A stretch of 64,000 nucleotides of DNA from Candidatus Kapaibacterium sp. GTDB lineage: Bacteria > Patescibacteriota > Patescibacteriia > UBA9934. Position 1 is the stretch's first letter. The number at the start of each line of letters is the position of its first letter. The stretch is from the NCBI GenBank assembly GCA_044350705.1, contig JBILHA010000002.1, forward strand, positions 30,542 to 94,541, written 5' to 3'. The position numbers were made by a program, and so were the translations under genes. Under the pieces are notes generated by a model. It did not search any database, was not told the DNA's origin, and saw nothing but the letters and a program-made list of their open reading frames with translations. Below, one piece after another: positions 2,296 through 64,000 of the stretch.

Positions 2296-2670
2296 TTATG
2301 GCAATTCTTTTCCTGCTCGTCGTACAATATCTCCCGGCGTTTGGTGTCCGCGGAGCGCTATGGTTGCGGCACCGGCTTCTAATAATCTTTCCGCCTCACC
2401 GTGACTCAGTTCATGTGCCTCTACAATAACACGGGCTTGCCGCAGGGTCGGAAGCGTCTTCCATCTTCGCAGAAGAAATTCCACCTCTTCTCGAGTCTGC
2501 ATTTCAACAACGACCACATGGGGAAGAAATTGTACCGCTCTGCGCTCTGCATCTTCTGCACGCATTGACTCTTCCACCTCCCATCCCTCTTTTTCAAATC
2601 TGCGCGCAAGTACCCCCCGGTACAACGCGTCTGATGCAAGCACGATAACACGAGGTTCGCGCGAGTTCAT
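2296..2670 (-). CDS. Receiver (CheY-like) domain protein, possibly atypical
   Basis: ATG at 2670 overlaps the PilM stop (ATGA). The alternating beta/alpha pattern (RVIVLASD..., HVVVVEMQ..., VIVEAHE...) fits a REC fold, but the phospho-acceptor position appears to be Glu, not Asp. Confidence 0.4.
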   Translation of the reverse strand: MNSREPRVIVLASDALYRGVLARRFEKEGWEVEESMRAEDAERRAVQFLPHVVVVEMQTREEVEFLLRRWKTLPTLRQARVIVEAHELSHGEAERLLEAGAATIALRGHQTPGDIVRRAGKELP

Positions 2671-3808: not shown

Positions 3809-4528
3809 CTACTTTTTCTCTCCTCTTCTATATGCAGTAGCCAAACAATCCGCGTATTCGTTCCAACGATTTCCTGCATGTGCCTTAATCCATGCCAACT
3901 TAATTTCTGGGCGCTTCTGCAATGTTTCGTGCACTTCCTGCACTAATTCAAGATTTTTGATCGCTTCTTTCTTTTTCCCCCGCGTCCACCCCTGTGCTTC
4001 CCAGTTTTTCGCCCAGAGCGTAAACGTTTTTACGCAGAGCTCGCTGTCTGAATAGACGGTCGTTGGGACTCCATGGGGAACAAGCCGAAATGCCGCAAGT
4101 AAGCCCATGAGCTCCATGCGGTTATTCGTGGTATGCGGCTCGTGTCCTGATTCTTCTGCAAGAATCTGATTCTCTACTACATAAACCGCTCCCCATCCTC
4201 CAGGTCCCGGGTTTGGCTCTGCAGCGCCATCAGTAAATACTCCTGTAAGAGGACCTCCCGTGTACTTCTCGAGCACTTCCTCTCGGGTGAGATTTTCTTC
4301 TTGGGCGGAAGATGATTTCTTGCACTTCATGCAGGTACTCGGTTTCCAATTAGGATATTTTGCAAGCGTCGCGGCAGGAAGAGAAAAGGTCTTCTCGCAT
4401 ACCTTGCAAAGAAATGAGGGGATGGACATACGTCCCACACTGTACACCAAGATTTCTTCCCCCTTAAAATACCCCTCTTTCTCGGAAGAAATTCTTTTCC
4501 AAGTCACGAGAGCATAAGCACGAATCAT
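3809..4528 (-). CDS. rnhA: Ribonuclease HI with an N-terminal Cys4 zinc-ribbon extension
   Basis: C-terminal 150 aa carry RNase HI motifs (VFTDGAAEPNPGPGGWGAVY, TTNNRMELMGLLAAF, TVYSDSELCV, WIKAHAGNRWNEYADCLA); N-terminal ~70 aa contain CKVC...CMKC. Confidence 0.85.
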   Translation of the reverse strand: MIRAYALVTWKRISSEKEGYFKGEEILVYSVGRMSIPSFLCKVCEKTFSLPAATLAKYPNWKPSTCMKCKKSSSAQEENLTREEVLEKYTGGPLTGVFTDGAAEPNPGPGGWGAVYVVENQILAEESGHEPHTTNNRMELMGLLAAFRLVPHGVPTTVYSDSELCVKTFTLWAKNWEAQGWTRGKKKEAIKNLELVQEVHETLQKRPEIKLAWIKAHAGNRWNEYADCLATAYRRGEKK

Positions 4529-4542
4529 CCGCTCTCATGTTC

Positions 4543-6354
4543 TTATTTCGCTCTTCGAATATCGAGCATACGATACTGAAGCGACCGTTTTCCATTCCAG
4601 GTGTTCACTTCGACTTCGTATGCAATATCTACCCGATCTCCCATGCGCAAGTGAGGAGCAAGGTGACCGAAACCAAACCCCACGAATGTCACTTGTCTTC
4701 CCCCCTCTTCTCGCACTTTACAGCGTAAATGCGCGTTCGTAGACCCCATCCGTATCGTTTCTTCGAGCACGAGATTTCTTGCGGCAAAAATGGGCGAACG
4801 ATTTCCTTCTCCAAAAGGCGCGCAACGGGAAAGATCTCCATACATCTCCCATGAAACCTCCGATGGCGCATATACCGCGTCAATCGCTAAGGTGTCACGA
4901 GGCCCCTCGCTTCCATAATAGGAACGAGCGAATGCATTCCCCCGTTCACGAAATGCTTGCACCATGTCTGGTCCTTTGAGCGTGAGTCCGCATGCCTGAG
5001 GGTGTCCTCCGCGTTTTACATACATTTCATCACCGCACGCATTCATGAGATCTACCAAATGCAATCCTCCCATACTCCTCCCTGAGCCCACTACATGGTC
5101 CCCTACATTCGTCAGTGCAAATGCAGGCTTCCCAAAATCATTCTGCAGTCTTCCGGCAATAAGTCCTACAATACCCGGAGCCCAATGTGGCGCATATGCG
5201 ACGAGAAGCTGGTCATCCATGCACTGTGCACGCACTTGCTCCTCTGCTTCTTTATACATCTGCTGGAATACCGCCTGGCGTTCACGGTTCATACGCTCCA
5301 GTACCGCCGCCTTCTCTCCTGCTTCTTCGGGATTTTTCGCGGCGAGCGCTTCAAACGCAGCTGCAGCGGATGCCATGCGTCCTGCGGCATTGAGCCGAGG
5401 CCCAATACGAAATCCGATTGCCGTTGTATCAATCTCTGAAAATTCCGTTCCGCTCATTTCAATAAGGGCCCGCAATCCTGGGCGTCTCGTTTTTTGCAAT
5501 ACCCGTAGTCCATAGTATTCCAAGACACGGTTTTCACCCGTGAGCGGCATCACGTCGGTCACGGTTGCAATGGCTACTAAATCTAAAAACCACTTTTCAT
5601 ATCCCTGCGGGAACGTTGCACCACGCTTCTGCGCTTCAATAATGAGCGCGGAAGCAAACTTAAAGGCTACTCCCGTCCCACAAAGCGTTTTATTGGGATA
5701 GGTTTCGTTTGGCGCCAAGGGATGCAGCACGATTGCCTGATCAGGATAATACTGCCCGAGCTGATGGTGATCGCAGACAATCACCTGCATTCCTCGCTCA
5801 TGCGCTCGACCAAGCTCAAGACCATTCGCGATCCCGCAATCTACGGTAATGAGAAGGTCCGTTCCTTCGTCTCCCAAGCGATCAACGGTATGCATCGCAA
5901 CGCCATATCCATCCTTTTCTCTCTCCGGAAGAAACGCGACAATATTCGGTGACCATCCAAGCTTTGCCGCAATCTCGTGCAGCGCACCATGCAGGAGTGT
6001 CGTACCGCTTACTCCATCTGCATCATAGTCTCCATGAATGACGATCCGCTTTCCTGATTGCAAAGCATGAAGCGCAACATCAACCGCCTCTTGCATACGG
6101 GTAAACGCAAACGGACTATACGTTCCTTCTTCCCAGGAAGGATTCATGAATTTTTCTTTTTCCTGGGGAGCTATTCCTCGGTTTACCAAAAGCTGCGCAA
6201 GAAGGTCATCTTGCGTACGCTCAGCGATTTTCCACACTTTTTGTGAGAAGTCTTTTTCTAAAATAGGGCCTAACCTTAGCAGATTTTTACATTCCGCCAA
6301 GGGAGATATCCCGAGGAAGAAAACCCTGTATTTACAAGCAAGAAACCAATTCAT
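4543..6354 (-). CDS. recJ: Single-stranded-DNA-specific exonuclease RecJ
   Basis: 603 aa; DHH motif RIVIHGDYDADGVSGTTLL, DHHQ, GGGH-like GHPQACG, C-terminal OB-fold region; typical RecJ length. Confidence 0.9.
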   Translation of the reverse strand: MNWFLACKYRVFFLGISPLAECKNLLRLGPILEKDFSQKVWKIAERTQDDLLAQLLVNRGIAPQEKEKFMNPSWEEGTYSPFAFTRMQEAVDVALHALQSGKRIVIHGDYDADGVSGTTLLHGALHEIAAKLGWSPNIVAFLPEREKDGYGVAMHTVDRLGDEGTDLLITVDCGIANGLELGRAHERGMQVIVCDHHQLGQYYPDQAIVLHPLAPNETYPNKTLCGTGVAFKFASALIIEAQKRGATFPQGYEKWFLDLVAIATVTDVMPLTGENRVLEYYGLRVLQKTRRPGLRALIEMSGTEFSEIDTTAIGFRIGPRLNAAGRMASAAAAFEALAAKNPEEAGEKAAVLERMNRERQAVFQQMYKEAEEQVRAQCMDDQLLVAYAPHWAPGIVGLIAGRLQNDFGKPAFALTNVGDHVVGSGRSMGGLHLVDLMNACGDEMYVKRGGHPQACGLTLKGPDMVQAFRERGNAFARSYYGSEGPRDTLAIDAVYAPSEVSWEMYGDLSRCAPFGEGNRSPIFAARNLVLEETIRMGSTNAHLRCKVREEGGRQVTFVGFGFGHLAPHLRMGDRVDIAYEVEVNTWNGKRSLQYRMLDIRRAK

Positions 6355-43980: not shown

Positions 43981-44101
43981 GAGAGAAGTATAGCAAGACG
44001 CAAAACGCGGCCCCAGGCACGCGCTTCTCACCTTCACCACCGAAGCGGAGAAAGGAGAAACGCGGCCCAGAGCCGCTGATCGAGCAGGGGCGGAATCCCT
44101 G

Positions 44102-45664
44102 CTAGTAGGCGTACGCCCAGACGTCATTGGCGTCTGCGCACGCGACGTATCCGGTGCAGGACGCGGGATTTTCCACGATCCGGCTTCCGGCAGCCACGCC
44201 GACGCCGTCGGTGAGGCTGCCACAGCCATACTGCACGGTCGCGAAAGATGAGGAACGATTCTCAACGGCGATATAGCCGCCGCCGCCCACCGAGATCGTT
44301 GATGTGCAGAGCGGGAGCTCGATCCAGGGATCCGGCGTACCGGTGTCGCCCGTGTCGCCCGCCTCGCAGTCCGCCTCGTCGGCGGTGCCGTCGCAGTCGT
44401 TGTCGACCGTATCGGCGCACACCTCGAGCTCGCCGGGGTTCACCGCCGCGACACCGTCATCGCAGTCGGTGTTGTCCTCGACGTAGCCCTCGATCCCGAT
44501 GCCTTCACACATGGGGGTACCGGGGTCCGACTCGTCGCCGTAGCCGTCGCCGTCGTTGTCCACGTAGACGTTCACGAAGTCGGCTGCGTCGGTGTCGGTG
44601 ACACCGTTGCAGTCGTTGTCGGTTCCGTCGCCGCAGACCTCGGTTGCGCCGGGGTTGACGAGCGCGTCGGTGTCGTTGCACTCCTCGCACGCGCCGTACC
44701 CGTCGCCGTCGTTGTCGTCGGCGCCGACCAACCCGTCGCAATTCATGTCGTCCGTGGCGCTGCAGTCCTCCATGGCGCCGGGGTTGACGAGCGCGTCGGT
44801 GTCGTCGCAGTCACCGTCGTGCGCGACGTAGCCGGTGGGCGTGCTGCAGGCCGAGACGGTCGTGGCGGGATCGCCGTAACCGTCGCCGTCGGTGTCGGCG
44901 TACCAGGTCTGCTTGTCGACGGCATCGCCGTCGGTGTCGCCGTTGCAGTCGTTGTCGATCCCGTCGCAGACCTCGGTGGCGTCGGGGTTGATGAGCATGT
45001 CGGAGTCGTTGCACTCCTCGCAGCCCGCAAAGCCGTCGCCGTCGCCGTCCTCGTTGCTCGTGAAGCCGTCGCAGTTCATGTCCTGCTCGTCTTCACAGGT
45101 TTCGGGGGCGCCGGGGTAGATGGTCGCGTCGGCATCGTTGCAGTCGGTGTAGTCGGGCACATAGCCGACCGGCTGTTCGCAGGCGGCGGTGGCCCAGGTG
45201 GGCTCCCCGTAGCCGTCGCCGTCGGTGTCGGCGTACCAGGTCTGCTTGTCGACGGCATCGCCGTCGGTGTCGCCGTTGCAGTCGTTGTCGATCCCGTCGC
45301 AGACCTCGGTGTTGCCGGGGTAGGCGCTCGAATCGGCATCATCGCAGTCCTCGCACTCGGCCACGCCGTCCTCGTCGTCGTCCACGCCGGTGATGAAACC
45401 GTCGCAGTCGATGTCGACGAGGTCGGTGCACTCCTCGATGGCATCCGGGTTGATCTCCGAGTTCCCGTCGTCGCAGTCGTCACAGGCCGAGAAGCCGTCA
45501 CCGTCGGCGTCGATCTCCTCGCACGGATTTCCGGTCTCGCCGGAGTCGTCCGTGACGATGCCGGTGTCATCCGGCATCGGCTCAAGCTCGCCCTTGATGT
45601 GCAGCGGGGGGAAACACGCCGCGAACAACACGAGGGCCATCAGGCCCATCTCGTTCGTCTTCAT
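44102..45664 (-). CDS. Secreted Cys-rich repeat protein with 'putative metal-binding motif' (MopE-like, Myxococcota-type) repeats
   Basis: Start ATG 45664 (MKTNEMGLMALVLFAACF, signal) preceded by GGAGG; ~9 repeats of C..C.DC(D/N)D.D..(I/V)NPGA.E.CDG.DNDC(N/D)G; strikingly GC-rich, GC3-dominated codons; contains ~120-bp near-identical internal direct repeats. Confidence 0.8.
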   Translation of the reverse strand: MKTNEMGLMALVLFAACFPPLHIKGELEPMPDDTGIVTDDSGETGNPCEEIDADGDGFSACDDCDDGNSEINPDAIEECTDLVDIDCDGFITGVDDDEDGVAECEDCDDADSSAYPGNTEVCDGIDNDCNGDTDGDAVDKQTWYADTDGDGYGEPTWATAACEQPVGYVPDYTDCNDADATIYPGAPETCEDEQDMNCDGFTSNEDGDGDGFAGCEECNDSDMLINPDATEVCDGIDNDCNGDTDGDAVDKQTWYADTDGDGYGDPATTVSACSTPTGYVAHDGDCDDTDALVNPGAMEDCSATDDMNCDGLVGADDNDGDGYGACEECNDTDALVNPGATEVCGDGTDNDCNGVTDTDAADFVNVYVDNDGDGYGDESDPGTPMCEGIGIEGYVEDNTDCDDGVAAVNPGELEVCADTVDNDCDGTADEADCEAGDTGDTGTPDPWIELPLCTSTISVGGGGYIAVENRSSSFATVQYGCGSLTDGVGVAAGSRIVENPASCTGYVACADANDVWAYAY

Positions 45665-45895
45665 TTCTTTTGCCTCCTGGGATTGAACCCGTAGCAAGGT
45701 TAGCAAAAAAATGCGAAAAAGTAAAGGAAAAAGGTGCCTGCAGAGCACTTCTTTTCCTCCAAAAAGTTTTTAAAACGAACAACCGCCCCTACAGTCCCGA
45801 AGGACCGCAGAGGCGGAAGATTCACCGGCGCGAGGCGCCGGCTACAGTAGACACGTGACCCCGTCTACTAGGGGGGGTGGCGCTGACGAGGCGCC

Positions 45896-47038
45896 CTACT
45901 CGACCTGGCAGACCGGCTCGTCGGCGGTGGAGCGCTTGTTGCACTCCCCCGCCGGTGGGGTGTCGTCCGTGGTGGAGTAGTTGAGGGTGGCCGTGTCCCC
46001 TCCGATGACGATCGAGCTGTAGTGCTCGGACCCGCCGGTGGCGATGTAGGAGCCATCGCTGCACTGCCCGAAGACCCACAGGAGGTCGCCGGACTGAGCG
46101 TTGATGCTCCCGGACAGGGTGTTGCTCCCGCCGGTGGCAATGTAGTCGGGGCTGGAGAGCCCCGGCCAGTTGCCGACCCAGTCGCTCTGGTTGAAGATCC
46201 AGAGCTCCCAGGTCTCGCCGGAGTCGGAGCACCACGAGCTGTCCTTCGTCACCTCGACGGTGAGGCTGCCCGAGCCGCTGTCGCTGCCCGAGTGCGTGCC
46301 GGTGTCCGTGTCGGAGGAGGTGTCCTCGTCCACGTCGGAGGTGCCGTCGTTGTCCGAGTCGGGGTTCTCGTCCGGGTCCAGGCCGAAGCCCTGGCAGCCG
46401 GGGGCGAAGACCCCCTCCTCATCCTTCATCAGGTAGAGGCCCAACCGGTTCCCGTCGAGGGGGTTGGGGCAGACCGCGGAGTCGTGGCCGCTCAGAGCGG
46501 TCAATTCCCCCCACTCGTCCAGCCCCCCGTCGGTGCTCAGATCGCACTCGCCGGGGGAGAAGGTCCGGGTGTTGCCGAAGAAGATGTCCACGGCGTCGGG
46601 GAAGAAGAACCGCACCTTCTCGGACCGGACGCCGGACGGCCAGTCGGACTGGTCGTCGTAGCGCTCGATCGGCAGGTTCTCGGAGCACCAGTCGTACTCA
46701 CCCTCGCTTCCCCCGAGGCCGTAGCCCACGAGGAAGGTGTTGGTGAGGCTGGCCACGAGCCCCTGGTCGAGGTAGACGAAGTCGCCGTAGGGCACCACCT
46801 TGTCGGCGGTGTCGATGATGCCGTCGTTGTCGAGGTCGGAGGTCGAGGAGCTGGGACCGGTGGTGCCCGAGTCGTCGCCGGAGTCGTCACCCCCGGCGCC
46901 GGTGTCGTCGCTGGGGTTGCTGGTGTCGTCGCCGTTGTTGTTGGCGTCGACGTTGCCATCGCTCTTCTTCTTGAACTCTCCGCCGCAAGCGACGAGGGAG
47001 GACAGGCCGAGGAGGGCGAGGAGGGAGAAGGCGTTCAT
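45896..47038 (-). CDS. Hypothetical secreted lipoprotein (lipobox LVAC), high-GC
   Basis: MNAFSLLALLGLSSLVACGG: signal peptidase II lipobox; D/S/G/T-rich acidic low-complexity N-terminal region then a Cys-containing domain; SD GGAG 8 nt upstream. Confidence 0.6.
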   Translation of the reverse strand: MNAFSLLALLGLSSLVACGGEFKKKSDGNVDANNNGDDTSNPSDDTGAGGDDSGDDSGTTGPSSSTSDLDNDGIIDTADKVVPYGDFVYLDQGLVASLTNTFLVGYGLGGSEGEYDWCSENLPIERYDDQSDWPSGVRSEKVRFFFPDAVDIFFGNTRTFSPGECDLSTDGGLDEWGELTALSGHDSAVCPNPLDGNRLGLYLMKDEEGVFAPGCQGFGLDPDENPDSDNDGTSDVDEDTSSDTDTGTHSGSDSGSGSLTVEVTKDSSWCSDSGETWELWIFNQSDWVGNWPGLSSPDYIATGGSNTLSGSINAQSGDLLWVFGQCSDGSYIATGGSEHYSSIVIGGDTATLNYSTTDDTPPAGECNKRSTADEPVCQVE

Positions 47039-47464
47039 GGCGTCTCCGGTACCTAGGGGAAACCCATTTGGGGTCCTAGGATTTTCTTTCTTTCGTTTCA
47101 GTTGTCAGAGGACTACCGGGACCATCCCGGCCGCTTGGGACCTGATTGATGTCTCAGGCCCCGAGGGCCCTGTTTGGGTCCGGCGGTGTTCGCGTCTCTT
47201 GTGGAGGAACAAGAGCCACGAACATCGCAGGAACAAATCTATTACTTGTTTTAAGATTCACTGTGATGCGTACGTAACCAGGAACCGGATTACTGATTTT
47301 CGTAACGGAGTATCGTACCATTTTTTTCCGTTTTTGTCAATGAAAGAAGGTGCGGATATCGAAGAATTTCACGGATGTTCGGATCTTCTTTTTCCCGGAT
47401 AAAGTGGGAGCAATCTTGCGATTCCTCACACTATGTTCTTGGAAACTTTTACAAACGTCTGGTA

Positions 47465-47501
47465 GGGAGAGTGGCGAAGCCCGAAGGCTTGCCACTCTCC
47501 C
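47465..47501 (-). terminator. Long GC-rich hairpin downstream of the beta-barrel-like gene
   Basis: gggagagtggcgaagcc cgaa ggcttgccactctccc: ~17-bp stem with one bulge; weak U-tract, so terminator function is tentative. Confidence 0.4.
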
Positions 47502-47547
47502 CCCACGATCGGAGAAACCCGAGAGTTCCTCCGATTTGTACCCGCTC

Positions 47548-48486
47548 CTAGAACGCGTAGATCGAGATCTCCGCGCCAGCCCGGAAGCCCAGCCCCGTCG
47601 TCACGTCGTTGCCGTTGGAGATGCGGTAAGGCATCGCCCCGGCCTCGAGGTTGACGGAAAGATGCTTCGCCGGCACGAGCCGCAGCTCAGCCCCCAGAGA
47701 CGCACCGTCCCCCTTGTAGGTGACGATGTAGTCGGGGAGGAGATCCACTTCCCAGTGGCTCAGCGTGACCGCCGGCCCCAGGTGCATGTTGTTCCCTATG
47801 CTGTAGATCGCCGAGAGGCCGATTTCGGCCACCCCGGTCCCCTTGCTTCCAGCGGCGATACCGCCGGAGCCGCTGTACCCCCACTTGCCTTTGGTCTCCA
47901 GGTCGGTGAGGCCGAGCTGGAGACCGAAGGTGGTGATGGCCGTGGGGCCGGCAGCTTCGGGGTTGGAGTAGGCCAACACCGTCATGGGCACCCCGAGGGT
48001 GAACTTCATGCCCGTGGCGGAATCGCGCTCCACCGACAGCTCGTCGCTGCTGGGCAGCTGCTGTGGTTCCGGCTTGGGGGCCGGGGCGGGCGGCGGGGGG
48101 GCGCCCCGCCGGCACTGGGCCGGGTCGCCCCGGAGGGCGGCCGCGATATCGATCTTCGGGGCGAACTCGCTGCAACCGTACTCGCCTTCGAGGTAGCGCG
48201 AGTAGGCCACGGTATCGGCCCCCCACTCGTCTCGACACACTTCGTCGCTCGCCTCCTGGCACACGAGCCAGCGGAACTGGCGCGAGTGCCGGCTCGGCGT
48301 CGACGAAGTGCGCTGCTGGCCGGCGGGGAGGTCGGCGACCTCCAGCTCCAGCTGAATGAGGCGCTCCTCGAGGCACTGCGCCCGCTGAGTGGAGTCGGTG
48401 AGACCGGTGCACGAGGCGGGGGGGTCCGCCGCGAGGGCGGCGGGGGTGAGACCGAGGACGGCGAAAAGGGTGAGGAACGACAGCAT
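47548..48486 (-). CDS. Hypothetical secreted protein, outer-membrane beta-barrel-like (C-terminal ...ISIYAF), high-GC
   Basis: Start ATG 48486 (MLSFLTLFAVLGLTPAALAA, signal peptide); Pro-rich linker; C-terminal ~170 aa of alternating hydrophobic residues ending in aromatic-x-Phe, as in OMP beta-barrels. Confidence 0.5.
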   Translation of the reverse strand: MLSFLTLFAVLGLTPAALAADPPASCTGLTDSTQRAQCLEERLIQLELEVADLPAGQQRTSSTPSRHSRQFRWLVCQEASDEVCRDEWGADTVAYSRYLEGEYGCSEFAPKIDIAAALRGDPAQCRRGAPPPPAPAPKPEPQQLPSSDELSVERDSATGMKFTLGVPMTVLAYSNPEAAGPTAITTFGLQLGLTDLETKGKWGYSGSGGIAAGSKGTGVAEIGLSAIYSIGNNMHLGPAVTLSHWEVDLLPDYIVTYKGDGASLGAELRLVPAKHLSVNLEAGAMPYRISNGNDVTTGLGFRAGAEISIYAF

Positions 48487-53475: not shown

Positions 53476-53934
53476 ATGGCATCTGTATTTTGTATGCCCC
53501 TTGCCGTGAATCCCAAAGCGCGCCACTCCTTTGACCTCATTGAGCAATTTGAGGGCGGCTTGGTGTTAACCGGCGCTGAGGTGAAAGCAACCATGCAGGG
53601 CAATGCAAATATTAAAGGAGCATTCGTTACTTTGCGCAATGGTGAGCTCTGGCTTCGGAATGCCTACATCGGCCACTACACGCCTTCCGGCCCCCAGCCC
53701 GAAGGAGCTGAACGACGAGATAGAAAGATTCTCGTACATAAAAACGAAATCCGTACGCTCATCATGCGTCATGAAGCAGAACGCCTGACCATGATTCCTT
53801 TGGATATCCACCTCTCTGGGCGGCGCATCAAACTCTCTTTTGCTCTCGCACGCGGAAAACGCAAGCATGAAAAACGCGCGTCAATAAAAAAACGAGAGGT
53901 GGATCGAGAGATCCGCAGAGCGCTGAAGAACTAA
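53476..53934 (+). CDS. smpB: SsrA-binding protein SmpB
   Basis: NPKARHSFDLIEQFEGGLVLTGAEVKA...GELWLRNAYIGHYTP...DRKILVHKNEI...LSFALARGKRKHEKRASIKKREVDREIRR: canonical SmpB. Start could alternatively be ATG 53494. Confidence 0.9.
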   Translation: MASVFCMPLAVNPKARHSFDLIEQFEGGLVLTGAEVKATMQGNANIKGAFVTLRNGELWLRNAYIGHYTPSGPQPEGAERRDRKILVHKNEIRTLIMRHEAERLTMIPLDIHLSGRRIKLSFALARGKRKHEKRASIKKREVDREIRRALKN

Positions 53935-53936
53935 AA

Positions 53937-53964
53937 AACTTCCTACATCTGTAGGAAGTTTTTT
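53937..53964. terminator. Bidirectional hairpin terminator shared by smpB (+) and tmRNA (-)
   Basis: aaaaaacttcctaca tc tgtaggaagtttttt: 9-11-bp stem with A/T runs on both sides; abuts the tmRNA CCA end. Confidence 0.75.
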
Positions 53965-54378
53965 GGTGGACCTGACGGGAATTGAACCCGTATCCGAGGA
54001 ACGTTCGCCAAAACTCTTTCTTCCAAGCTCATTCGCGTTTAGAGGGTTTACGTCTTTTTCGGTCAAGAAACGCGACGAACAACGAAACCGACGATGACAC
54101 GGCAAGGGTCCCTTATGCAGTGCGTCATCCCTGCAAAGGCAAGCGAGAAGGGTTATGACATGACTACTTTACGCACTCGCAGCGTAAAGGTCATGGGTGG
54201 CGGCGTTATTACGCGGCGACCGGAACAAAGGAAGGCGTGCGGAGCGCAGAAGCGACGACAGCCTTCACTTTTGAAAATACGTTTGCATGTACTTTCTGAA
54301 GCGTGTGATAACGCGGGACGCTTCGCCCGCGGCTTGAGAGGGATTGGGAATGATCTTCGTCGAAAGCCTAACAGGCCC
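53964..54378 (-). ncRNA. ssrA: tmRNA (SsrA transfer-messenger RNA), ~415 nt
   Basis: 3' end on the minus strand reads GGGUUCAAUUCCCGUCAGGUCCACCA (T-arm, acceptor, CCA). The 5' end GGGCCUGUUAGGCUUUCGACGAAG pairs with it over 7 bp including a G3-U70 wobble. Conserved UUCGACG box. In-frame tag ORF from resume codon GCA: GCA AAC GUA ... GCC GCG UAA UAA gives ANVFSKVKAVVASALRTPSFVPVAA with a double stop. Convergent with smpB. Confidence 0.85.
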
Positions 54379-54473
54379 ATGAGATTTGCTGCCCAAGTTT
54401 GTCCCTGGCGGTGTCGTGGATCCTGTCTGACGGCGTCAACGTCCGGATGAAGGACGTCTCCTTGTCAGCCATC

Positions 54474-54606
54474 CACTCCTAGCCAGGAACAAACTTAGCA
54501 GCAAATCTGGTCTTGATTCTCTTCTCAATTCTTTTTCAATCTCACCGTACCGATGTGGTACGCCTCGGCCAAGCCTCGAAATCTCCTTGCAACTGAACGA
54601 ACTTAG
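54474..54606 (+). repeat. ~132-bp direct repeat, copy 1
   Basis: ctcctagccaggaacaaacttagcagcaaatctggtcttgattctcttctcaattctttttcaatctcaccgtaccgatgtggtacgcctcggccaagcctcgaaatctccttgcaactgaacgaact; near-identical to 54743-54876. Confidence 0.85.
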
Positions 54607-54742
54607 TATCAAATCCGTTCGTCACGTCACAACGGGCGGTCGACGGCGTACCGTTTAGGTACGTCTTGACGACCGTCTTTGCTCTTCCTTGAAGCTGACT
54701 AAACTTATTAGTAGCAACTTACTCATTCGCCTATCTTCCTCT

Positions 54743-54876
54743 CACTCCTCGCCAGGAACAAACTTAGCAGCAAATCTGGTCTTGATTCTCTTCTCGATTC
54801 TTTTTTTTAATCTCACCGTATCGATGTGGTACACCTCGGCCAAGCCTCGAAATCTCCTTGCAACTGAACGAACTGA
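54743..54876 (+). repeat. ~132-bp direct repeat, copy 2
   Basis: ctcctcgccaggaacaaacttagcagcaaatctggtcttgattctcttctcgattcttttttttaatctcaccgtatcgatgtggtacacctcggccaagcctcgaaatctccttgcaactgaacgaact; differs from copy 1 at a handful of positions. Confidence 0.85.
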
Positions 54877-54979
54877 GGAGCAGATCTCTTTCTTGCTTTT
54901 TCATCTTATGATCTTCAAAGATTCTATCAGATCTCTTCTTTAAGATAAAGAAAGACGCCTTCTTTCTTCAGAAAATATC

Positions 54980-55009
54980 TTGCAAAAAGCGCTTCTCATC
55001 TGGTACGAT
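54980..55009 (+). promoter_or_regulatory. Candidate sigma-70 promoter for the infC-rpmI-rplT operon
   Basis: TTGCAA (54980-85), 18-nt spacer, TACGAT (55004-09), with TGG immediately upstream of the -10 element; ~35-55 nt upstream of infC. Confidence 0.35.
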
Positions 55010-55041
55010 AGAATCAATAAACCTCAAGGAAGCTTTTTATT

Positions 55042-55623
55042 TTGCTTCTTTTTAACCCCACGACAATGCGCATCCACAAACATCGCCGGTTCCAAACGCC
55101 TAAATTTGCTCCTCAAGTCTATAAAGCAAATCAGGCAATTACCGCAGAAGAAGTTCGCGTTATTGATGAAGAAGGCAATGCTTTGGGCGTTATGCCGACC
55201 AGCAAAGCCGTCGCTCTTGCCGCGGAACGCGAGCTTGATCTTATCGAAGTTTCTCCAAAAGCTGAGCCTCCTGTTTGTAAGATCGGGGACTACGGTCAGT
55301 TCAAGTACCAAAAGGAAAAAGAAGCTCGTAAGCAGCGTGCCCAGTCCAAAGAGGTCGAAATTAAAGGTATTCGTCTTGGATTGCGTATCGGCGAAGGCGA
55401 CCTGAACATTCGCGTACAGCAGGGCGTTAAATTCTTTGAACAGGGAGATAAAATCAAAGTAGAAATGATTCTCCGAGGCCGTGAACGTGCGTATCAGGTC
55501 CAGGCCCAGGCCGTTTTTGATACCTATGTCGAGAAACTCAAGGTGCACTATCCGGTAAAAATCGAGTCTCCCGTGAAGGCACAGGGGGGAAAATTGCACA
55601 TGATCCTTGCACGTCAGACCTAA
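55042..55623 (+). CDS. infC: Translation initiation factor IF-3
   Basis: IRVIDEEGNALGVMPTSKAVALAAERELDLIEVSPKAEPPVCKIGDYGQFKYQKEK...: canonical IF3. The track start is TTG at 55042, with AAGGAAG 10 nt upstream; IF3 genes typically use non-ATG starts. ATG at 55066 is the alternative. Confidence 0.9.
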   Translation: MLLFNPTTMRIHKHRRFQTPKFAPQVYKANQAITAEEVRVIDEEGNALGVMPTSKAVALAAERELDLIEVSPKAEPPVCKIGDYGQFKYQKEKEARKQRAQSKEVEIKGIRLGLRIGEGDLNIRVQQGVKFFEQGDKIKVEMILRGRERAYQVQAQAVFDTYVEKLKVHYPVKIESPVKAQGGKLHMILARQT

Positions 55624-55920: not shown

Positions 55921-56265
55921 ATGCCACGCGTAAAACGCGGTACGCAGCACGTCAAGCGCCGCAAAAATCTCCTCGCTAAGGTAAAAGGCTTCTCTTGGGG
56001 CCGTAAGAGCAAGATCCGCCTTGCTCGCCCTGCGATGCTCAAAGCCGGAATGTACGCATTCCGCGACCGCCGCGCAAAGAAGCGCACCTTCCGCAACCTT
56101 TGGACCATTAAGATCAATGCCGCAGTTCGTGAACTCGGCCTTTCCTACTCGGTCTTCATGGCAAACCTCAAGAAGGCAAATATCGCCCTTGATCGTAAGG
56201 TTTTGGCCCAGATTGCTGAAAAGAGCCCTACAACGTTTGCAAAAATCGTTGACGCGGCAAAATAG
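55921..56265 (+). CDS. rplT: 50S ribosomal protein L20
   Basis: MPRVKRGTQHVKRRKNLLAKVKGFSWGRKSKIRLARPAMLKAGMYAFRDRRAKKRTFRNLWTIKINAAVRELGLSYSVFMANLKKANIALDRKVLA: canonical L20. Confidence 0.95.
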   Translation: MPRVKRGTQHVKRRKNLLAKVKGFSWGRKSKIRLARPAMLKAGMYAFRDRRAKKRTFRNLWTIKINAAVRELGLSYSVFMANLKKANIALDRKVLAQIAEKSPTTFAKIVDAAK

Positions 56266-56285
56266 CCCATTTCTTTTTTCCAAAA

Positions 56286-56316
56286 CCCCGTATGTTCTGC
56301 ATACGGGGTTTTGTTT
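56286..56316 (+). terminator. Rho-independent terminator of the infC-rpmI-rplT operon
   Basis: ccccgtatg ttctg catacgggg ttttgtttt: 9-bp stem followed by a T-run. Confidence 0.8.
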
Positions 56317-56436
56317 TGACTTTTTTGCTTTTTTCTGCTAAAATACCGGGTCCGTTTGAGAGCTCGTTGAGTTCTCTTTCGGCCATCAAGTTCGATCCTT
56401 TCACCCACCGCCGGAGATCCCGGCAAAGGAGCCCTC

Positions 56437-57435
56437 GTGGCCGCGAACCCCATCAAGCCACTCGTTGTGGCCCTCCTCGCTCGCATCCCGGGCGCACTCC
56501 AGATCGCCGCGGACCTGGCGTCCCTCAAGGACGAGCAGATCCTGACCGACGAGACGGCCGCGACCTGGAAGAGCCTGCAGAATGAGGCCGAGGCTATCCA
56601 GATGGAAGCCGAAAGCCTCGAGCAGGACGGCTTCCGGAAGCCGACCCTCGACCCCCTCCCCTCTCCGCCGGAAGACGGCAAAGAGGTTCCGGACAAGGTC
56701 GTCTTCTTCAAGACGGGCGTCGGTACGGTGAAGAGCAACCTGGACAAGCTCCAAGAAGCCCTCACCACCTTCGAGGCCTCCCTCGTCGACCCGGCTCCCC
56801 CGCCGCCCCCGCCGCCGCCCCCCGCGGACCCGGGGCCCAAGCAGCCCCCGCCGCCCCCGGGCGGACGGCGCCCGCGGCCGCCGCACCCCACCGCCGCCGC
56901 CCAGCCCCCGAAGAAGGGGTGGCAAGGCTGGGTGGCCGGCGGTATCGCGTTTCTCCTGTTCCTCACCTTCATCCTCTGGGCCCTGTGGCCCGAGGAGGAG
57001 AAGGTGGTGGCGGTGACCCCGCCGCCGGTCGAGGAGCCCGCCGCCCCGGCGAAGGCGAAGGTGGAGGCCCCCAAGCCGAAGCCCGCTCCGGTGGCGGTTC
57101 CGTCGCCGGCCCCGACCCCCTACGGCGAGATGCCCCGCGCGTGCGCGGATGCACTCGACAACGTGGGCGACATGGACGGCGACGGTATCGCCGAGACCTA
57201 CACCATGGTGCCCATCGGCAACGGTGCGGCCCTGTACGTGTCGGGTGTGGAGGTTAAGGACGGCGCGTGCACCATCTCCAACGGCGAGTTCGCCGCGCTC
57301 CACACGGAGTTCGGTGAGAGGCTGAAGGGGATCGCGCTGAAGGGCCGGTTCACCCCCGTGGTGACCCTGAGCGGCGGCCGCAAGGTCCGCTGCAACAAGG
57401 GCCCCGGGGGATTCGAGAACTGCTTCGAGGGGTAG
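56437..57435 (+). CDS. Hypothetical Pro-rich single-pass membrane protein (high-GC)
   Basis: GTG start 7 nt after AAGGAG; poly-Pro tracts (PPPPPPPPPAD, PPPPPGG), one TM (GWVAGGIAFLLFLTFILWALW), C-terminal Cys-containing domain; GC3-dominated codons unlike neighbouring rplT. Confidence 0.5.
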   Translation: MAANPIKPLVVALLARIPGALQIAADLASLKDEQILTDETAATWKSLQNEAEAIQMEAESLEQDGFRKPTLDPLPSPPEDGKEVPDKVVFFKTGVGTVKSNLDKLQEALTTFEASLVDPAPPPPPPPPPADPGPKQPPPPPGGRRPRPPHPTAAAQPPKKGWQGWVAGGIAFLLFLTFILWALWPEEEKVVAVTPPPVEEPAAPAKAKVEAPKPKPAPVAVPSPAPTPYGEMPRACADALDNVGDMDGDGIAETYTMVPIGNGAALYVSGVEVKDGACTISNGEFAALHTEFGERLKGIALKGRFTPVVTLSGGRKVRCNKGPGGFENCFEG

Positions 57436-57660
57436 AAGCAGAGCAGGGGGCAACGTCCCGCCGACAAGTACTAGAAGAGCAATCTTCAGGAACCTGTCGG
57501 CGGGCCACATCTACGCTCGTCGACAAGTACCGAAGAGATTCGCTCTTCTGGGAACGTCGGCGGGCGTTTTGCGTTTCTTTTATTCTTTCACACCCCCTCC
57601 CCTTTCTCTTCTTGCAGAGTTTTTTTCTCCCTGTTATAGTATTCACGCTCCAAATGGCGA

Positions 57661-57737
57661 GGGGCGGTAGTTCAATTGGTTAGAGCACTGCCCTGTCACG
57701 GCAGAAGTTGCGGGTTCGAGTCCCGTCCGCCCCGCCA
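57661..57737 (+). tRNA. tRNA-Asp (anticodon GTC), CCA encoded
   Basis: GGGGCGG ta GTTC aattggtta GAGC a CTGCC ctGTCac GGCAG aagtt GCGGG ttcgagt CCCGT CCGCCCC g CCA: full cloverleaf, anticodon loop cuGUCac. Confidence 0.9.
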
Positions 57738-57743
57738 GAAAAC

Positions 57744-57775
57744 CACTTCTCTTTCGAGAGAGGTGTTTTTCTTTT
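57744..57775 (+). terminator. Terminator after tRNA-Asp (UUCG tetraloop hairpin plus T-run)
   Basis: cacttctct ttcg agagaggtg tttttctttttag: 9-bp stem with one G-U pair. Confidence 0.65.
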
Positions 57776-58118
57776 TAGCTAAGCCATATTTACGAGTTCC
57801 AACCGCCTGTTTTTATATATAACGGTCAGCGAGGATTTCGTGAGGCATTTGGCAATGAAACCGCGGTTTTTTCGTTGAATGTTGGGGGCTCAAGCACTTC
57901 TCAGTATTCTCTTCTTGATTTTTTCCTAAAAAATGCTATACTACTTTGTTGCTTGAAGATGCGGGTGACATCGAAAAAGCGACAAGCGTGTCCCCGTTCG
58001 TATGCTCCGTTAGTTTGGCGTCTGGTATTTCTACAATATCGGTTGACGCCAGGCAAACGGAGCGTATGAAAGGCGCTTCCGCGACATCCTGTCGCGCCTC
58101 CAACTCCACGGAGCTCTC

Positions 58119-61007: not shown

Positions 61008-62418
61008 ATGTCACCACGATGATTTGCAACTGCACTCCCGTCTTTTCATTTCCCGTAACCAGCGCAACCCGTTCTCCACGTTTCAGATTCCATTGTTTTT
61101 TTGCAATATTCTTTACCCGCATCGGGAGTGATGCAGGACTGAGATCTCCCACAATCGGCTCCGCGCCCCACGCGAGTACCACTTGCCGCGCCGCTTCATG
61201 GTCCGGAACTAAAAGTCCAAAATGGATGCGCGGTCGATAGCGCATGAGTGCGCGCGCTTCGGGAAGATCTGCAGGTACAAGGAGCGCAGCAAGGCCCCGC
61301 GCTTCAGCGAGCAACGCGATGGTATGCGCGAATGCCTCTCCGAGGTGCTTTGTTGCGTGTGCAGTGAGCGGCACGTCGTCATACCGCGAATGCTCAGCGG
61401 CAGCAATTGCTTGTGCCATTGCTTGTACGGCAACTGCGGGATATCGCCCCGTTGCAGACTCCGCCGAGAGCATCACTGCATCTACATGATCAAATACCGC
61501 ATTGGCGATGTCGGAAATTTCTGCGCGCGTTGCACGCGGATTTGCTTTCATGCTCTCAAGCATGTGCGTAGCAACGATGCAAGGTTTTCCTGCGATCCTG
61601 CAGCGCTCAGCAATATCTTTTTGCACAAGAGGCACTTCTGCGGGAGGAATTTCTACGCCCAAATCCCCTCGTCCGAGCATGATTCCATCAGCCTCTTCTA
61701 AAATGGCATCAACATTCTTGAGCGCCGCTGCGCGCTCGACTTTTGCCATGATGAGCGGTGTACGACGACGATGCTTACGCGCAACCTCTTGCGCAAGGGT
61801 GCGCGCAGTTTTTATAACCTCCGGAGAAGTCACGAATGAAACGCATACCCAATCTACCCCAAGCGCTACGCCATATGCTAAATCTTCACGGTCTTTCTGC
61901 GTGAGTGCAGAGGCAGTGACGACCGAATCAGGTACATTCACTCCTTTGTGCGACGTGAGCACTCCTCCCACATCTACCGAACAATGGATATTGCGATCAT
62001 GTACTCGCAGCACGGAGAGCTCGATATTTCCATCATCCAAAAAAATGCGATGATCCTTTTTCACTTCTTTATGCAGCGTGTGATACGTCAAAGGGATGTG
62101 TTGCAGTTTTGCGTCGTACGCAACCGGCTTTGTTGTGAGCGTCACCGTTTGTCCTTCCCGGAGAACAATGCCTTTTTTGGGGAGCTCTCCTACCCGAATT
62201 TTCGGTCCTTGGAGATCTTGTAAAATCGCTACCGTCTTTCCCGCTTTGCGCGCCGCTGCATGCACTGCACGAAAAAGCGCCGCATGTTCATCATGCGTGC
62301 CGTGAGAAAAATTGAGTCGGGCAACATCCATGCCCGCGCGCATCATGCGTGCAAGCAATAGGGGTGATGATGATGCAGGACCGATCGTACACACGATGCG
62401 CGTGCGCGCCTCCTCCAT
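61006..62418 (-). CDS. pyk: Pyruvate kinase
   Basis: MEEARTRIVCTIGPASSSPLLLARMMRAGMDVARLNFSHGTHDEH...LQDLQGPKIRVG...MAKVERAAAL...IMLGRGDLGVEIP...ATHMLESM: canonical PK motifs. Confidence 0.95.
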   Translation of the reverse strand: MEEARTRIVCTIGPASSSPLLLARMMRAGMDVARLNFSHGTHDEHAALFRAVHAAARKAGKTVAILQDLQGPKIRVGELPKKGIVLREGQTVTLTTKPVAYDAKLQHIPLTYHTLHKEVKKDHRIFLDDGNIELSVLRVHDRNIHCSVDVGGVLTSHKGVNVPDSVVTASALTQKDREDLAYGVALGVDWVCVSFVTSPEVIKTARTLAQEVARKHRRRTPLIMAKVERAAALKNVDAILEEADGIMLGRGDLGVEIPPAEVPLVQKDIAERCRIAGKPCIVATHMLESMKANPRATRAEISDIANAVFDHVDAVMLSAESATGRYPAVAVQAMAQAIAAAEHSRYDDVPLTAHATKHLGEAFAHTIALLAEARGLAALLVPADLPEARALMRYRPRIHFGLLVPDHEAARQVVLAWGAEPIVGDLSPASLPMRVKNIAKKQWNLKRGERVALVTGNEKTGVQLQIIVVT

Positions 62419-62723
62419 ATGGATAAAGTATAGCAGAAAGGGAGTGAGGGGCCGGCGAGTAGCCTGCTGAAAATTGAGAGCATGAAAACATACGTGTCAT
62501 TTCGAGGAGTCCGACGCACACCGATCGGACGACGAGAAATCTTTGAGGCATTCCAGATGTTCATACGTCTGAAAGATTTCTCCTCAGCTGGCCATGCAGT
62601 ATTTGGCCCGCTTCGTCGAAATGACACCATCGCCCTCGCTTCCCCTTAATAAACAAATCGCCGCCGGACAGCACGAGGGCTGCCGGCGGCATACGGCGTG
62701 GAAGTTCGTCATGCACGTACGTA

Positions 62724-63470
62724 CTAGACGTAGCGCGGGACGATCTCCCACGCGATGGCGGAGGGAACGGGGGCGAAACCGCGGGCCTTGTCGATCCCGA
62801 TCGCCTGGCGGACGAGGATTCCGTCCGGCGGGATTGGGAGGGCCGCAGAGTTCGCGTTGAAGGGCGCGGGATCCTTGCCCGAGACCTCCACCACGAGACC
62901 GGTGGTGCTCATGCCCTTGCGAGCGCTGAACACCGCCCTGCCCTGCAGGAACCAGACCTCCCCCATGACCCTCGGCATGTGAGGGATGGCAAAGGGAAGG
63001 TGAGCATTGACATGGGCCGCCGCGCCGAAGAGCAGCGTACCGCCATGCACCTGCTGGAAGTGATTCATGGAGAAGTGCGTTGGGGGAGTTCCCCGGCTGG
63101 GGACTTCCGCCACGACCTCCGCCAGGATCTCCTCCTCACTCATCCCCGATCCTGCCGCAAGGGTAGCCGGAGCCAGAGGCAGCGTCTCGCTGATCGCTTC
63201 CCCATCGAAGATGACGGGGATCGAAATTCTCTCCCCCTTGTAGTCGACGATAAGCCGGACAAGGATCCCATCCGGCTCCTTCGACTCCTCGGTGGCAGGA
63301 CGAGGCCGCTCGCGGATGATCGGGGGCCGAGCTCCGCTCGGCGTAATCGTGCGACCGATGCCCGCCGGGGGCGGGGGGGGCGGCGAGGGAGCGAAGGCCT
63401 CCCTCGCCGGGGGCTCTTTGAGCCCCCAGAGCACGTTCCAGGCACGTGCGAGCCTCTCGAAGAAGCCCAT
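62724..63470 (-). CDS. Hypothetical protein (high-GC), Pro-rich N-terminal region
   Basis: ATG at 63470 (MGFFERLARAWNVLWGLKEPP...PSPPPPPPAG...); GC3-rich codons; no family recognised. The track ORF begins further upstream. Confidence 0.45.
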   Translation of the reverse strand: MGFFERLARAWNVLWGLKEPPAREAFAPSPPPPPPAGIGRTITPSGARPPIIRERPRPATEESKEPDGILVRLIVDYKGERISIPVIFDGEAISETLPLAPATLAAGSGMSEEEILAEVVAEVPSRGTPPTHFSMNHFQQVHGGTLLFGAAAHVNAHLPFAIPHMPRVMGEVWFLQGRAVFSARKGMSTTGLVVEVSGKDPAPFNANSAALPIPPDGILVRQAIGIDKARGFAPVPSAIAWEIVPRYV

Positions 63471-63646
63471 ACTCCTCCTCTTGCGCAGGAATTGCGCAGG
63501 TATGGCGCGCGGAGTATAGTCGTTTTTTGGGTTTTTTACAAGCGTACCCCCCTTTTTTTCTCCACACTCCCAAACGCAACAAGCCGCCGGCATCCCGAGA
63601 GGACGCCAGCGGCGAACGGTAGAGCGCTTGTCGAGGTTTTGTCTCG

Positions 63647-64000
63647 CTAGGACAAGACCTTGACAGCTACTCTGAGCATGTTTTCGAAGATTGCGTCGTC
63701 GCCGACGCCGAGACGGAGCTCGTCGCCCTGACCGAGCACCCCCTCCTCTCCAGCGGACCGGTACCGGGTCGTCGTCTTTGCCGAGGTGGTTGGGCGCGAG
63801 GCCACCACCCCTTCGCTCGTCACGCGCAAGTGCACGATGACGAGGGGAAGGGAGGCGTACTGCCCCGGGGTCGTGACCTGAGGCACGAGGTTGCCCCCCT
63901 TGCCTACGGTGATCTCCCCCACCTCTCCCTCCCAGGGTTCACCCGGGAGTGATGTTCCGTCGGGGAGGAGAACCCCGAGACGAGTGTGCCCCCCAAAGAG
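63647..64000 (-). CDS. Hypothetical protein (high-GC), 5' end beyond window
   Basis: Open minus-strand frame continues to the window edge (..PGEPWEGEVGEITVGKGGNLVPQVTTPGQYASLPLVIVHLRVTSEGVV..); the in-window start is only a GTG, so the gene probably begins outside the window. Confidence 0.3.
   Translation of the reverse strand, partial: LFGGHTRLGVLLPDGTSLPGEPWEGEVGEITVGKGGNLVPQVTTPGQYASLPLVIVHLRVTSEGVVASRPTTSAKTTTRYRSAGEEGVLGQGDELRLGVGDDAIFENMLRVAVKVLS

Follow-up and report, generated by a model that had tools for sequence, protein, structure and literature searches.

The stretch of DNA analysed here, referred to as the window, comprises 64,000 nucleotides (nt) of contig JBILHA010000002.1, in which the gene for transfer-messenger RNA (tmRNA), ssrA, lies between smpB and infC. 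The divergent spacer between ssrA (minus strand) and infC (plus strand) holds two direct repeats of about 133 bp, which are the subject of this analysis. Judged by the relatives of its IF3 and SmpB proteins, the DNA stems from a Patescibacterium of the Uhrbacteria type. An earlier note on this DNA had described two near-identical direct copies of roughly 132 bp immediately downstream of the tmRNA gene. The copies were confirmed, and the observation holds once its genomic context is corrected: since Rfam puts the tmRNA on the minus strand (54378..53964), the repeats are located upstream of its 5' end. The approximately 95 nt between the repeats and the tmRNA belong to an intact long hairpin. 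The repeats probably arose as by-products when stacked copies of such ~127-nt hairpins, upstream of the minus-strand tmRNA, were rearranged, and the hairpins represent a family for which an RNA-level role is most likely. The features of the locus are compiled in Table 1.

Table 1. Features of the smpB–ssrA–infC locus, with positions referring to the window.
Feature	Position	Strand	Details
smpB	53476-53934	+	Open reading frame (ORF); Pfam SmpB on the identical JGI contig; convergent with the tmRNA gene
18-bp inverted repeat between smpB stop and tmRNA 3' end	53930-53967		94% complementary, 2-nt loop, T/A runs on both sides
tmRNA (ssrA)	53964-54378	-	Rfam RF00023, 98.1 bits, full length
Intact long-hairpin element, 127 nt	54382-54508	-	3' arm 54382-54408, apex stem-loop 54430-54450, 5' arm 54482-54508; ends 3 nt before the tmRNA 5' end
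Repeat copy 1	54474-54606	+	BLAST; 5' arm and GCUAGGAG loop of the intact element (54474-54508), linker (54509-54540), apex and partial 5' arm of an older truncated element
Linker AUUGAAAAAGAAUUGAGAAGAGAAUCAAGA (30-nt form GAAUUGAGAAGAGAAUCAAGA)	54509-54540; repeated at 54780-54811 in copy 2	-	Sequence comparison
3'-truncated element copy	54525-54616	-	Apex CGAGGCGUACC..GGUACGGUGAG 54541-54570, GCAAGGAG loop 54583-54590, 5' arm 54594-54616; no complementary 3' arm
Degenerate 3'-truncated copy (spacer between the repeats)	54587-54717	-	Hairpin 54636-54676, degenerate 5' arm 54690-54716, UUCAAGGAAG loop
Repeat copy 2	54743-54876	+	Orphan 5' arm (54750-54779), linker, apex and partial 5' arm of the most distal truncated element
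Most distal 3'-truncated copy	54772-54887	-	Apex 54812-54841, GCAAGGAG loop 54854-54861, 5' arm 54865-54887
Candidate ssrA promoter	54921-54949	-	TTTATC-N17-TAGAAT with TG extension; read from sequence; 28 nt upstream of the distal element copy
Candidate infC promoter	54980-55009	+	TTGCAA-N18-TACGAT with TGn-extended -10; read from sequence; infC ATG at 55067

The two repeat copies share 94.7% identity over 132 nt in the BLAST alignment, the differences being five substitutions and an indel of 2 nt within a T run, and start 269–271 nt apart. Their 41- and 44-nt cores occur exactly twice each in the window and not at all in shuffled sequences, and within the 64 kb the repeats are confined to the ssrA–infC locus. 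For comparison, the smpB–ssrA–infC locus was retrieved from relatives (L-numbered loci). The two-copy structure was found at 100% identity in contigs from two JGI samples (L001 and L005) and in a one-and-a-half-copy version in the NCBI assembly GCA_009925725.1 (L002), the conservation of the 133-bp units being limited to near-identical strains. Folded alone, the 133-nt units showed no excess stability over shuffles (z-scores of +0.3 to +1.3 for both copies on either strand), and a reading as two structured small RNAs was dropped for this reason. The repeat region gave no Rfam match even at E ≤ 10. ORFs reading through the repeats are not conserved between the copies, because the 2-nt indel alters their frame. 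The JGI gene caller predicted a 33-aa ORF in copy 2 (54742–54843, minus strand, MAEVYHIDTVRLKK...), positioned after AAGGAG; it is almost certainly spurious, because the indel cuts the corresponding frame in copy 1 to 15 aa, and no conserved start was found in L010 or L013.

The intact hairpin next to the tmRNA reaches a minimum free energy of −73.3 kcal/mol on the minus strand (z −9.1), as against −64.3 kcal/mol on the plus strand. A covariance model (R1), which was built from the hairpins of six relatives (alignment A3) with the window sequence excluded, scored it with 90.9 bits (E 2e-18) on the minus and 31 bits on the plus strand, while a broader model (R2) yielded 66.8 bits. Applied to the whole window with filters off, R1 returned nothing beyond this full-length match and three partial ones, all of them in the ssrA–infC spacer. 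The small hairpin that the earlier note had placed near 54426–54446, preceding the repeats, is real; however, it is not a separate feature and forms the tip of the 127-nt hairpin, whose 5' arm makes up the first 35 nt of repeat copy 1, this being the sole overlap of the intact member with that copy. On the plus strand, a 23–29-nt segment, CGCCAGG(A/G)ACAAACTT..GCAGCAAATCT, opens each repeat copy and recurs once, inverted, directly against the tmRNA 5' end (54382–54410), with no further occurrence in the window. It constitutes the only significant similarity between the repeats and the tmRNA locus (29 nt; score 41 versus 17.6 ± 2.1 in shuffles). By-eye readings of this motif as a sigma-54 or extracytoplasmic function (ECF)-type promoter were abandoned after it had been recognized as the arm of a hairpin. 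Inspection by eye also led to the rejection of a promoter within the 3' arm, its −10-like TAGCAA being without the final T and without a −35 at a usable distance.

Read along the minus strand, the spacer resolves into a stack of relatives of this hairpin. The candidate ssrA promoter (54949..54921) is followed after 28 nt by a truncated element (arm 54887–54865, GCAAGGAG loop, apex 54841–54812) and the linker; then come an orphan 5' arm (54779–54750) and a degenerate truncated element (arm ~54716–54690, hairpin 54676–54636); finally, a further truncated element (arm 54616–54594, apex 54570–54541) and the linker again precede the intact element (54508–54382), CAU and the tmRNA. The truncated copy closest to the tmRNA scored 20.7 bits with R1, in its apex region only (54525–54585, model positions 31–94), and 26 bits with R2. 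For the copy between the repeats, R1 gave 20.2 bits with the 3' half unpaired, and homology to L010 3866–3911 was recognized by eye; the hairpin reported there by the earlier note was recovered with a z-score of −2.2. The most distal copy obtained 24.1 bits with R1, again with the 3' half unpaired, and 23.7 bits with R2. The canonical apex of the family is present in two of the truncated copies (54541–54570 and 54812–54841). Each 133-bp repeat starts midway through one copy's 5' arm and stops shortly beyond the following 5' arm with its GC(U/A)AGGAG loop. Neither repeat is a complete family member, since the scores amount to just 20–24 bits and the 3' half remains unpaired. The suggestion of two paralogous copies of a small structured RNA was the nearest of the guesses made beforehand and is partly right: the repeats derive from a structured hairpin family, but the copies themselves are relics truncated at the 3' side, their 3' arms broken and their scores at 24 and 21 bits. 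From 54541 onward, L002 is 98.9% identical to the window, but it is approximately 130 nt shorter, and the 5' arm and older apex (H1) corresponding to the truncated copy at 54525–54616 belong there to an intact hairpin abutting the tmRNA. Stacking is not unique to the window, as L128 carries two family elements in tandem (2187–2287 and 2387–2501), 100 nt apart.

The same position is occupied by a comparable structure in related genomes. In L002, L010, L013, L016, and L019, a near-perfect extended hairpin of 124–128 nt was detected on the tmRNA-sense strand, ending 3–7 nt before the mature tmRNA 5' end, with z-scores between −7.9 and −9.4 and a sense strand exceeding the antisense strand in stability by 9–16 kcal/mol. 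Covariation of the arms is seen from genome to genome (GTATC/CGAAC in L002 versus GCAGC/CAAAC in the window). In alignment A3, comprising six hairpins, 93% of the cells are paired (slid controls, about 35%), and 25 of the 48 pairs feature double changes. In L018 (2384–2560), no family member was found upstream of the tmRNA; a different long hairpin composed of GGGCTAGG / CCTAGCC words is located approximately 45 nt upstream of the tmRNA 5' end.

Members of the family are not restricted to ssrA loci. The apex pattern CTCACCGTAY-N4-11-GTACRCCTCG was detected at at least 120 metagenome loci, compared with about 30 estimated by chance, and a scan of viral contigs added one partial match. Nearly all of the matches are the tips of long hairpins, which fall into length classes of ~113–139, ~166, and 177–250 nt. 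The apex consists of a 5–9-nt loop and a 5–6-bp GUAC stem, followed by a G/G mismatch, a G.U pair, and tandem G.A in the invariant CGAGGCGUAC...GUACGGUGAG. Furthermore, a second internal loop (GCAAGG.../...CAACGCAG) and a bulged-G motif in the outer stem are conserved, and all helices between them vary. When 67 distinct sequences were aligned to the model, 88% of the cells were paired (slid controls, about 35%), 41 of the 47 pairs showed compensatory changes, and G.U pairs sat at fixed positions; a plain MAFFT alignment of 24 hairpins combined with RNAalifold recovered the apex only, so that model-guided alignment was required. In 86 of 88 hairpins, the strand bearing the purine-rich loops exceeded the other in stability, on average by 14.9 kcal/mol, with 470 versus 287 G.U pairs and 41 versus 132 A.C mismatches on the two strands.

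With R2, 101 matches were obtained in 597 kb, and 8 of the 79 loci harbor at least two full-length copies. Copies on one contig share the architecture and have different arm sequences. Two near-identical copies on the same 60-kb contig (L045 830–955 and L076 6403–6528) carry AT-rich direct repeats (TTTAATCTTA) on both flanks, which is the sole hint of a recent duplication or transposition with a possible target-site duplication. The family had no match in Rfam 15 (15 loci at the gathering threshold, eight loci at E ≤ 1, and the window), BLAST of one 166-nt member against plasmid and phage collections remained without a match, and a literature search by topic and sequence words found no description of it. 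Clustering of neighbouring proteins revealed no recurrent partner protein or transposase, the clusters representing orthologous loci or spurious ORFs over the hairpin. The GC-rich 166-nt class resides on contigs whose FtsZ is closest to that of Deltaproteobacteria, Thermodesulfobacteriota, and Deferrimicrobiaceae metagenome-assembled genomes (MAGs), and the family therefore spans distant lineages. It is a large, uncatalogued hairpin family of Patescibacteria and Desulfobacterota-like bacteria.

Regarding their placement, the elements adjoin gene 3' ends in 39 instances, often 0–50 nt from the stop codon, and gene starts in 15. Of 88 elements, 6 have a tRNA gene no more than 120 nt away, where 1.3 would be expected; the gene is found at the 3' side of the element in five of the six cases, and four of the six elements are co-oriented with the tRNA (gaps of 4, 4, 31, and 41 nt). 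An intact copy ends 3–9 nt before the mature 5' end of the tmRNA at six loci and of tRNA-Ile or tRNA-Asn at L048 and L082. In L061, a family element (1256–1376, minus strand; 54.6 bits with R1, 64.1 with R2) begins 3 nt after tRNA-Val, and back to back with it a second apex-pattern match (1429–1454, within ~1380–1502 on the plus strand) abuts tRNA-Pro, for which neither a model match nor a single long hairpin fold was obtained. The flanks of family members are neither U- nor A-rich, and no U tract follows the hairpins. A function as intrinsic terminator was rejected on this basis, and the scan of 53800–55200 found no terminator-like site.

The gap of 3–7 nt between hairpin and tmRNA leaves no room for a promoter, and the element would therefore lie inside the transcription unit. 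L010, L012, and L019 share a sigma-70-type promoter, TTGAGA-N17-TA(G/C)AGT, on the tmRNA strand, which is positioned 8 nt from the tmRNA 5' end in the element-free L012 and 22–28 nt upstream of the element in L010 and L019. The candidate ssrA promoter of the window shows the same spacing as that of L010 and L019, and in all three relatives the ssrA promoter contains a −35 region (GGATTGAGAAAAAG) to which the linker appears homologous. Judging from these positions, the hairpin would be co-transcribed from the upstream promoter as part of a pre-tmRNA leader, which in the window would measure about 536 nt and hold four 5' arms competing for one 3' arm. A cut by RNase P at the tmRNA 5' end would then detach the hairpin from the tmRNA; RNase P has an established role in tmRNA maturation (PMC3985003). 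Selection seems to favour the single strand with the purine-rich (tandem G.A) internal loops. Taken together, an RNA-level role of the element, either as a transcript-boundary, processing, or stability hairpin or as a structured leader, is proposed with moderate confidence, and the intact hairpin is the candidate functional part of the locus. The 133-bp repeats most likely have no function of their own and are decaying truncated copies that lengthen the pre-tmRNA leader.

Among known repeat systems, ERIC elements are the closest analogue in form and placement; homology between the two is not established. The ERIC palindrome is imperfect, measures 127 bp, and has a conserved centre. Its core was found with 100% identity in all 5426 E. 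coli genomes, at a median of nine places per genome. An E. coli copy from the ybhJ–ybhI spacer folds into a 127-nt hairpin of −51.7 kcal/mol, versus −37.1 kcal/mol on the other strand, and features a 5–6-bp apical stem flanked by G.U and G.A pairs as well as the 3'-side words GGUGAGCG and AACGCAG. Scanned with filters off, this copy was matched over its full length and in the right orientation by R1 (12.7 bits) and R2 (18.2 bits; E ~0.08); it was the top match in 50 kb of E. coli DNA and the best of 100 kb scanned, with the next matches at 15.4 and 13.8 bits. Both systems are imperfect palindromes of about 127 nt forming a single long hairpin (the window copy measuring 127 nt within the 113–139-nt class), and both have a conserved centre with a 5–6-bp stem flanked by G.U and tandem G.A. 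Likewise, purine-rich loops lie on one strand, which is approximately 15 kcal/mol more stable, the two 3'-side words occur in both, and both are multi-copy, extragenic, and placed near gene 3' ends in either orientation. In contrast, the apex reads CCCCAGGAGCUUAC..GUAAGUGACUGGGG in ERIC and CGAGGCGUAC..GUACGGUGAG in the family, and terminal TA dinucleotides, a trait of ERIC, are mostly absent from the family flanks. The hosts also differ, being Enterobacteriaceae and Vibrionaceae for ERIC versus Uhrbacteria-like and Deltaproteobacteria/Deferrimicrobiaceae-like MAGs for the family. Furthermore, we know of no ERIC element abutting the 5' ends of tRNA or tmRNA. ERIC elements are co-transcribed and influence mRNA stability (PMC2229807, PMC3184786), and ERIC-like repeats have been linked to genome plasticity regions (PMC3184786). 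More generally, repetitive extragenic palindromic (REP) sequences, ERIC, and repeats of the type of miniature inverted-repeat transposable elements (MITEs) are often found at gene 3' ends and co-transcribed, form long stem-loops, and can alter mRNA stability (PMC2229807, PMC3184786).

MITEs such as Correia/NEMIS, RUP, and RPE resemble the family in their small size (100–200 bp), in transcripts that form long stem-loops, and in their frequent location at gene 3' ends with co-transcription; some are substrates of RNase III or RNase E, and rickettsial RPE elements were found even fused to tmRNA and RNase P RNA genes (PMC2229807). The family is likewise multi-copy and dispersed and is polymorphic in its presence (L012 versus L010 and L019). 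However, MITE termini are conserved, whereas in the family the arms differ between copies on one contig and the architecture is kept. Of the MITE hallmarks, a target-site duplication was seen in the L045/L076 pair only, and no partner transposase was found among the neighbours. REP sequences and REPINs share with the family the extragenic, hairpin-forming palindromes near stop codons in either orientation, including doublets. REPs are 20–40 bp long with a GTAG or CGTC tag and are conserved in their arms; unlike these, the family conserves apex and internal loop, and no RAYT gene was seen. A family copy ending 3–9 nt before a mature 5' end must also be a leader, as are the pre-tRNA and pre-tmRNA leaders removed by RNase P. 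Known bacterial leaders of this kind are short and unstructured, and to our knowledge no conserved rod of 127 nt has been described in this role. TIGR-Tas arrays, in which box C/D-flanked dual spacers accompany a Nop-domain Tas protein (PMC12045711), were considered and rejected, as no protein family recurs beside the element.

With respect to the origin of the repeats, the three older copies upstream of the intact one retain 5' arm, GCAAGGAG loop, and apex and have lost the 3' arm. Because each repeat begins and ends in homologous arm segments of about 24 nt, unequal homologous recombination or slippage between arms may have generated the 133-bp unit, which would explain that the sister strain possesses one unit fewer. 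The variation in copy number among strains is consistent with such recombination.

Several points weigh against the favoured interpretation as a whole. Successive targeted insertions, instead of unequal crossing-over, could also stack truncated copies. The intact hairpin of the window itself lacks the canonical CGAGGCGUAC-loop-GUACGGUGAG apex and instead carries GAGACGUCC-UUCAUCC-GGACGUUGA (ACGUCC..GGACGU) with a second-tier GA motif, and it may be a recombinant. In 27 of the 39 cases at gene 3' ends (27 versus 12, about 70%), the mRNA of the neighbour would carry the less stable strand with the pyrimidine loops, so that most protein-gene neighbours would transcribe this other strand; although the asymmetry in stability and conservation points to the purine-loop strand, either strand, as RNA or as single-stranded DNA, may be the functional molecule. 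These context statistics are based on heuristic gene calls and were checked on ten cases that clearly represent real proteins; as judged by eye, these include ribosomal protein L5, a DEAD-box helicase, an RluB-like synthase, and a permease. Part of the energy asymmetry between the strands stems from the conserved G.A loops themselves. The ssrA promoter candidate of the window is weak by consensus and fell below the threshold of a consensus promoter scan, which reported none. Anatomy, family membership, covariation, strand asymmetry, and strain polymorphism are demonstrated by the data, whereas co-transcription, release by RNase P, the mechanism of recombination, and any function are inferred.

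Close relatives (IF3 85–95% identical) do not all carry the tmRNA gene in one orientation with respect to smpB and infC: it is minus in the window, L002, L010, L012, L018, and L019 and plus in L007, L014, and L016, whereas in L013 the entire smpB–ssrA block is inverted relative to infC. More distant Uhrbacteria (L020–L025) exhibit the canonical order smpB->ssrA. Such flips among close relatives imply recurrent small inversions. In L016, two full elements (2229–2356, plus strand, 100.9 bits; 2780–2903, minus strand, 78.4 bits) lie in inverted orientation 4–5 nt from either end of the tmRNA; inversion could act on this pair, although the two share just 59% identity. Between smpB and tmRNA, L014 (906–2381) contains a 491-aa ORF with no Pfam family above the cut-off (weak DUF6390), for which a role as recombinase was considered and rejected, and L019 (3933–4353) contains approximately 420 nt of AT-rich, non-coding-looking sequence.

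The variable orientation and the bracketed tmRNA of L016 are what would be expected if the element acted at the DNA level, the hairpins being palindromic recombination substrates (cruciforms or inverted repeats) and the stacked fragments scars of repeated tmRNA inversions. This explanation is considered a serious rival, albeit an unlikely one. The low identity of the L016 copies is unfavourable to it, L007, L012, and L014 differ in tmRNA orientation and yet carry no element, and the conserved non-complementary purine loops and fixed G.U positions favour a single-stranded folded form over recognition as duplex.

Alternatively, each repeat might carry a working copy of the ssrA promoter region, its linker holding a TTGAGA −35 remnant and its arm TGCTAAGTT, adaptively duplicated so as to drive extra tmRNA transcription or a small minus-strand RNA. 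Such tandem promoter or small-RNA modules would account for the resemblance of the linker to the ssrA −35 region of L010, L012, and L019 and for the alignment of the arm start CCAGATTTGCTGCTAAGTT with the spacer and −10 of L012 (CCAGATTTCGAGTAGAGT). Nevertheless, they appear distinctly improbable: the 25 nt between TTGAGA and TAAGTT are too long for a sigma-70-type promoter, the −35 is changed to TCGAGA in copy 2, the consensus scan reported no promoter, and the units are conserved in near-identical strains only.

Duplicated remnants of attachment sites left at the tmRNA by a mobile element, whether excised, as the earlier note had suggested, or integrated, were also considered. Integration is known to favour tmRNA genes, and in a distant relative, L022 (~4380–4575), the last 26 nt of the tmRNA (GAGTTCAATTCTCCTCAGGTCCACCA) are present twice, flanking a masked run of N, as is typical where an island has inserted into the 3' end of a tmRNA gene; this applies to the relative and not to the window. 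The repeats, however, lie on the 5' side, show no similarity to the tmRNA body or 3' end, have no integrase among the called neighbours, and are accounted for base for base as parts of hairpin elements, so that this proposal did not stand and is regarded as very improbable. The same low standing is given to the note's proposal of a tandem regulatory leader upstream of infC, taken here as a leader of the infC–rpmI–rplT operon subject to L20 or IF3 autoregulation. The repeats do lie between ssrA and infC, and pyrimidine-rich words on the plus strand resemble an anti-Shine-Dalgarno sequence (CUCCUUG); they are, however, positioned upstream of the likely infC promoter, whose TGnTAnnAT −10 element is conserved approximately 50 nt before the infC ATG in L007, L010, and L012. 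No match to the Rfam L20_leader (RF00558) was obtained at E ≤ 10, the plus strand folds no better than shuffles, the structured strand being the opposite one, and L007, with an IF3 95% identical, is without a trace of the repeats. An assembly artefact, which the earlier note had named as a way to overturn its observation, is the least credible source of the two copies: the short-read contigs L003, L004, and L006 stop within the repeat, as a true repeat would also predict, but the structure recurs in two JGI samples with a variant in the NCBI MAG, and collapsed or duplicated reads would not produce the five differing positions and the indel.

Other features of the region touch the repeats less directly. 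The inverted repeat between smpB and the tmRNA 3' end is, by its sequence, likely a bidirectional terminator shared by both genes. ARAGORN reported no tmRNA anywhere in the window, despite the full-length Rfam match of 98 bits; this Patescibacterial tmRNA was missed by the heuristic finder and recovered by the Rfam model. The window averages about 50% G+C apart from islands of 60–65% at 44001–48000, 56001–58000, and 62001–64000, one of which covers a proline-rich ORF of 332 aa (56437–57435) without a Pfam match just downstream of rplT.

Under the favoured interpretation of the repeats as rearrangement by-products, the finding at this locus is ordinary, namely a local duplication in a stack of palindromic repeats, and it is the uncatalogued family behind it that merits a survey. 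What had been an unexplained repeat pair can be read as a history in which copies of one structured element are stacked and decaying in an ssrA–infC spacer prone to rearrangement. The family itself is strongly covarying, possesses an invariant core, is absent from Rfam 15, and occurs in at least two distant bacterial lineages. In Patescibacteria, its members recurrently lie 3–9 nt from the 5' ends of tRNA and tmRNA. It is conceivable, though doubtful, that it constitutes an undescribed functional RNA class of both lineages and is not merely selfish, in which the apex (GUAC stem, G/G, G.U, and tandem G.A) and the GCAAGG/CAACGCAG loop would bind a conserved factor and mark transcript boundaries, and inverted copies of the L016 type would drive the flipping of ssrA. 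If so, mRNA 3' ends would be capped by hairpins, arising, for instance, through RNase P cleavage of a tRNA or tmRNA further downstream, and structured leaders would gate the maturation of tmRNA and tRNA. As an ERIC-like system outside the enterobacteria, the family would allow RNA-level selection to be examined against selfish spread with thousands of sequences. If the elements are transcribed, the reduced genomes of Patescibacteria would produce stable RNAs with structured leaders of 127 nt and mRNAs with rod-like 3' ends, which is of relevance for RNA processing in organisms that are not yet culturable.

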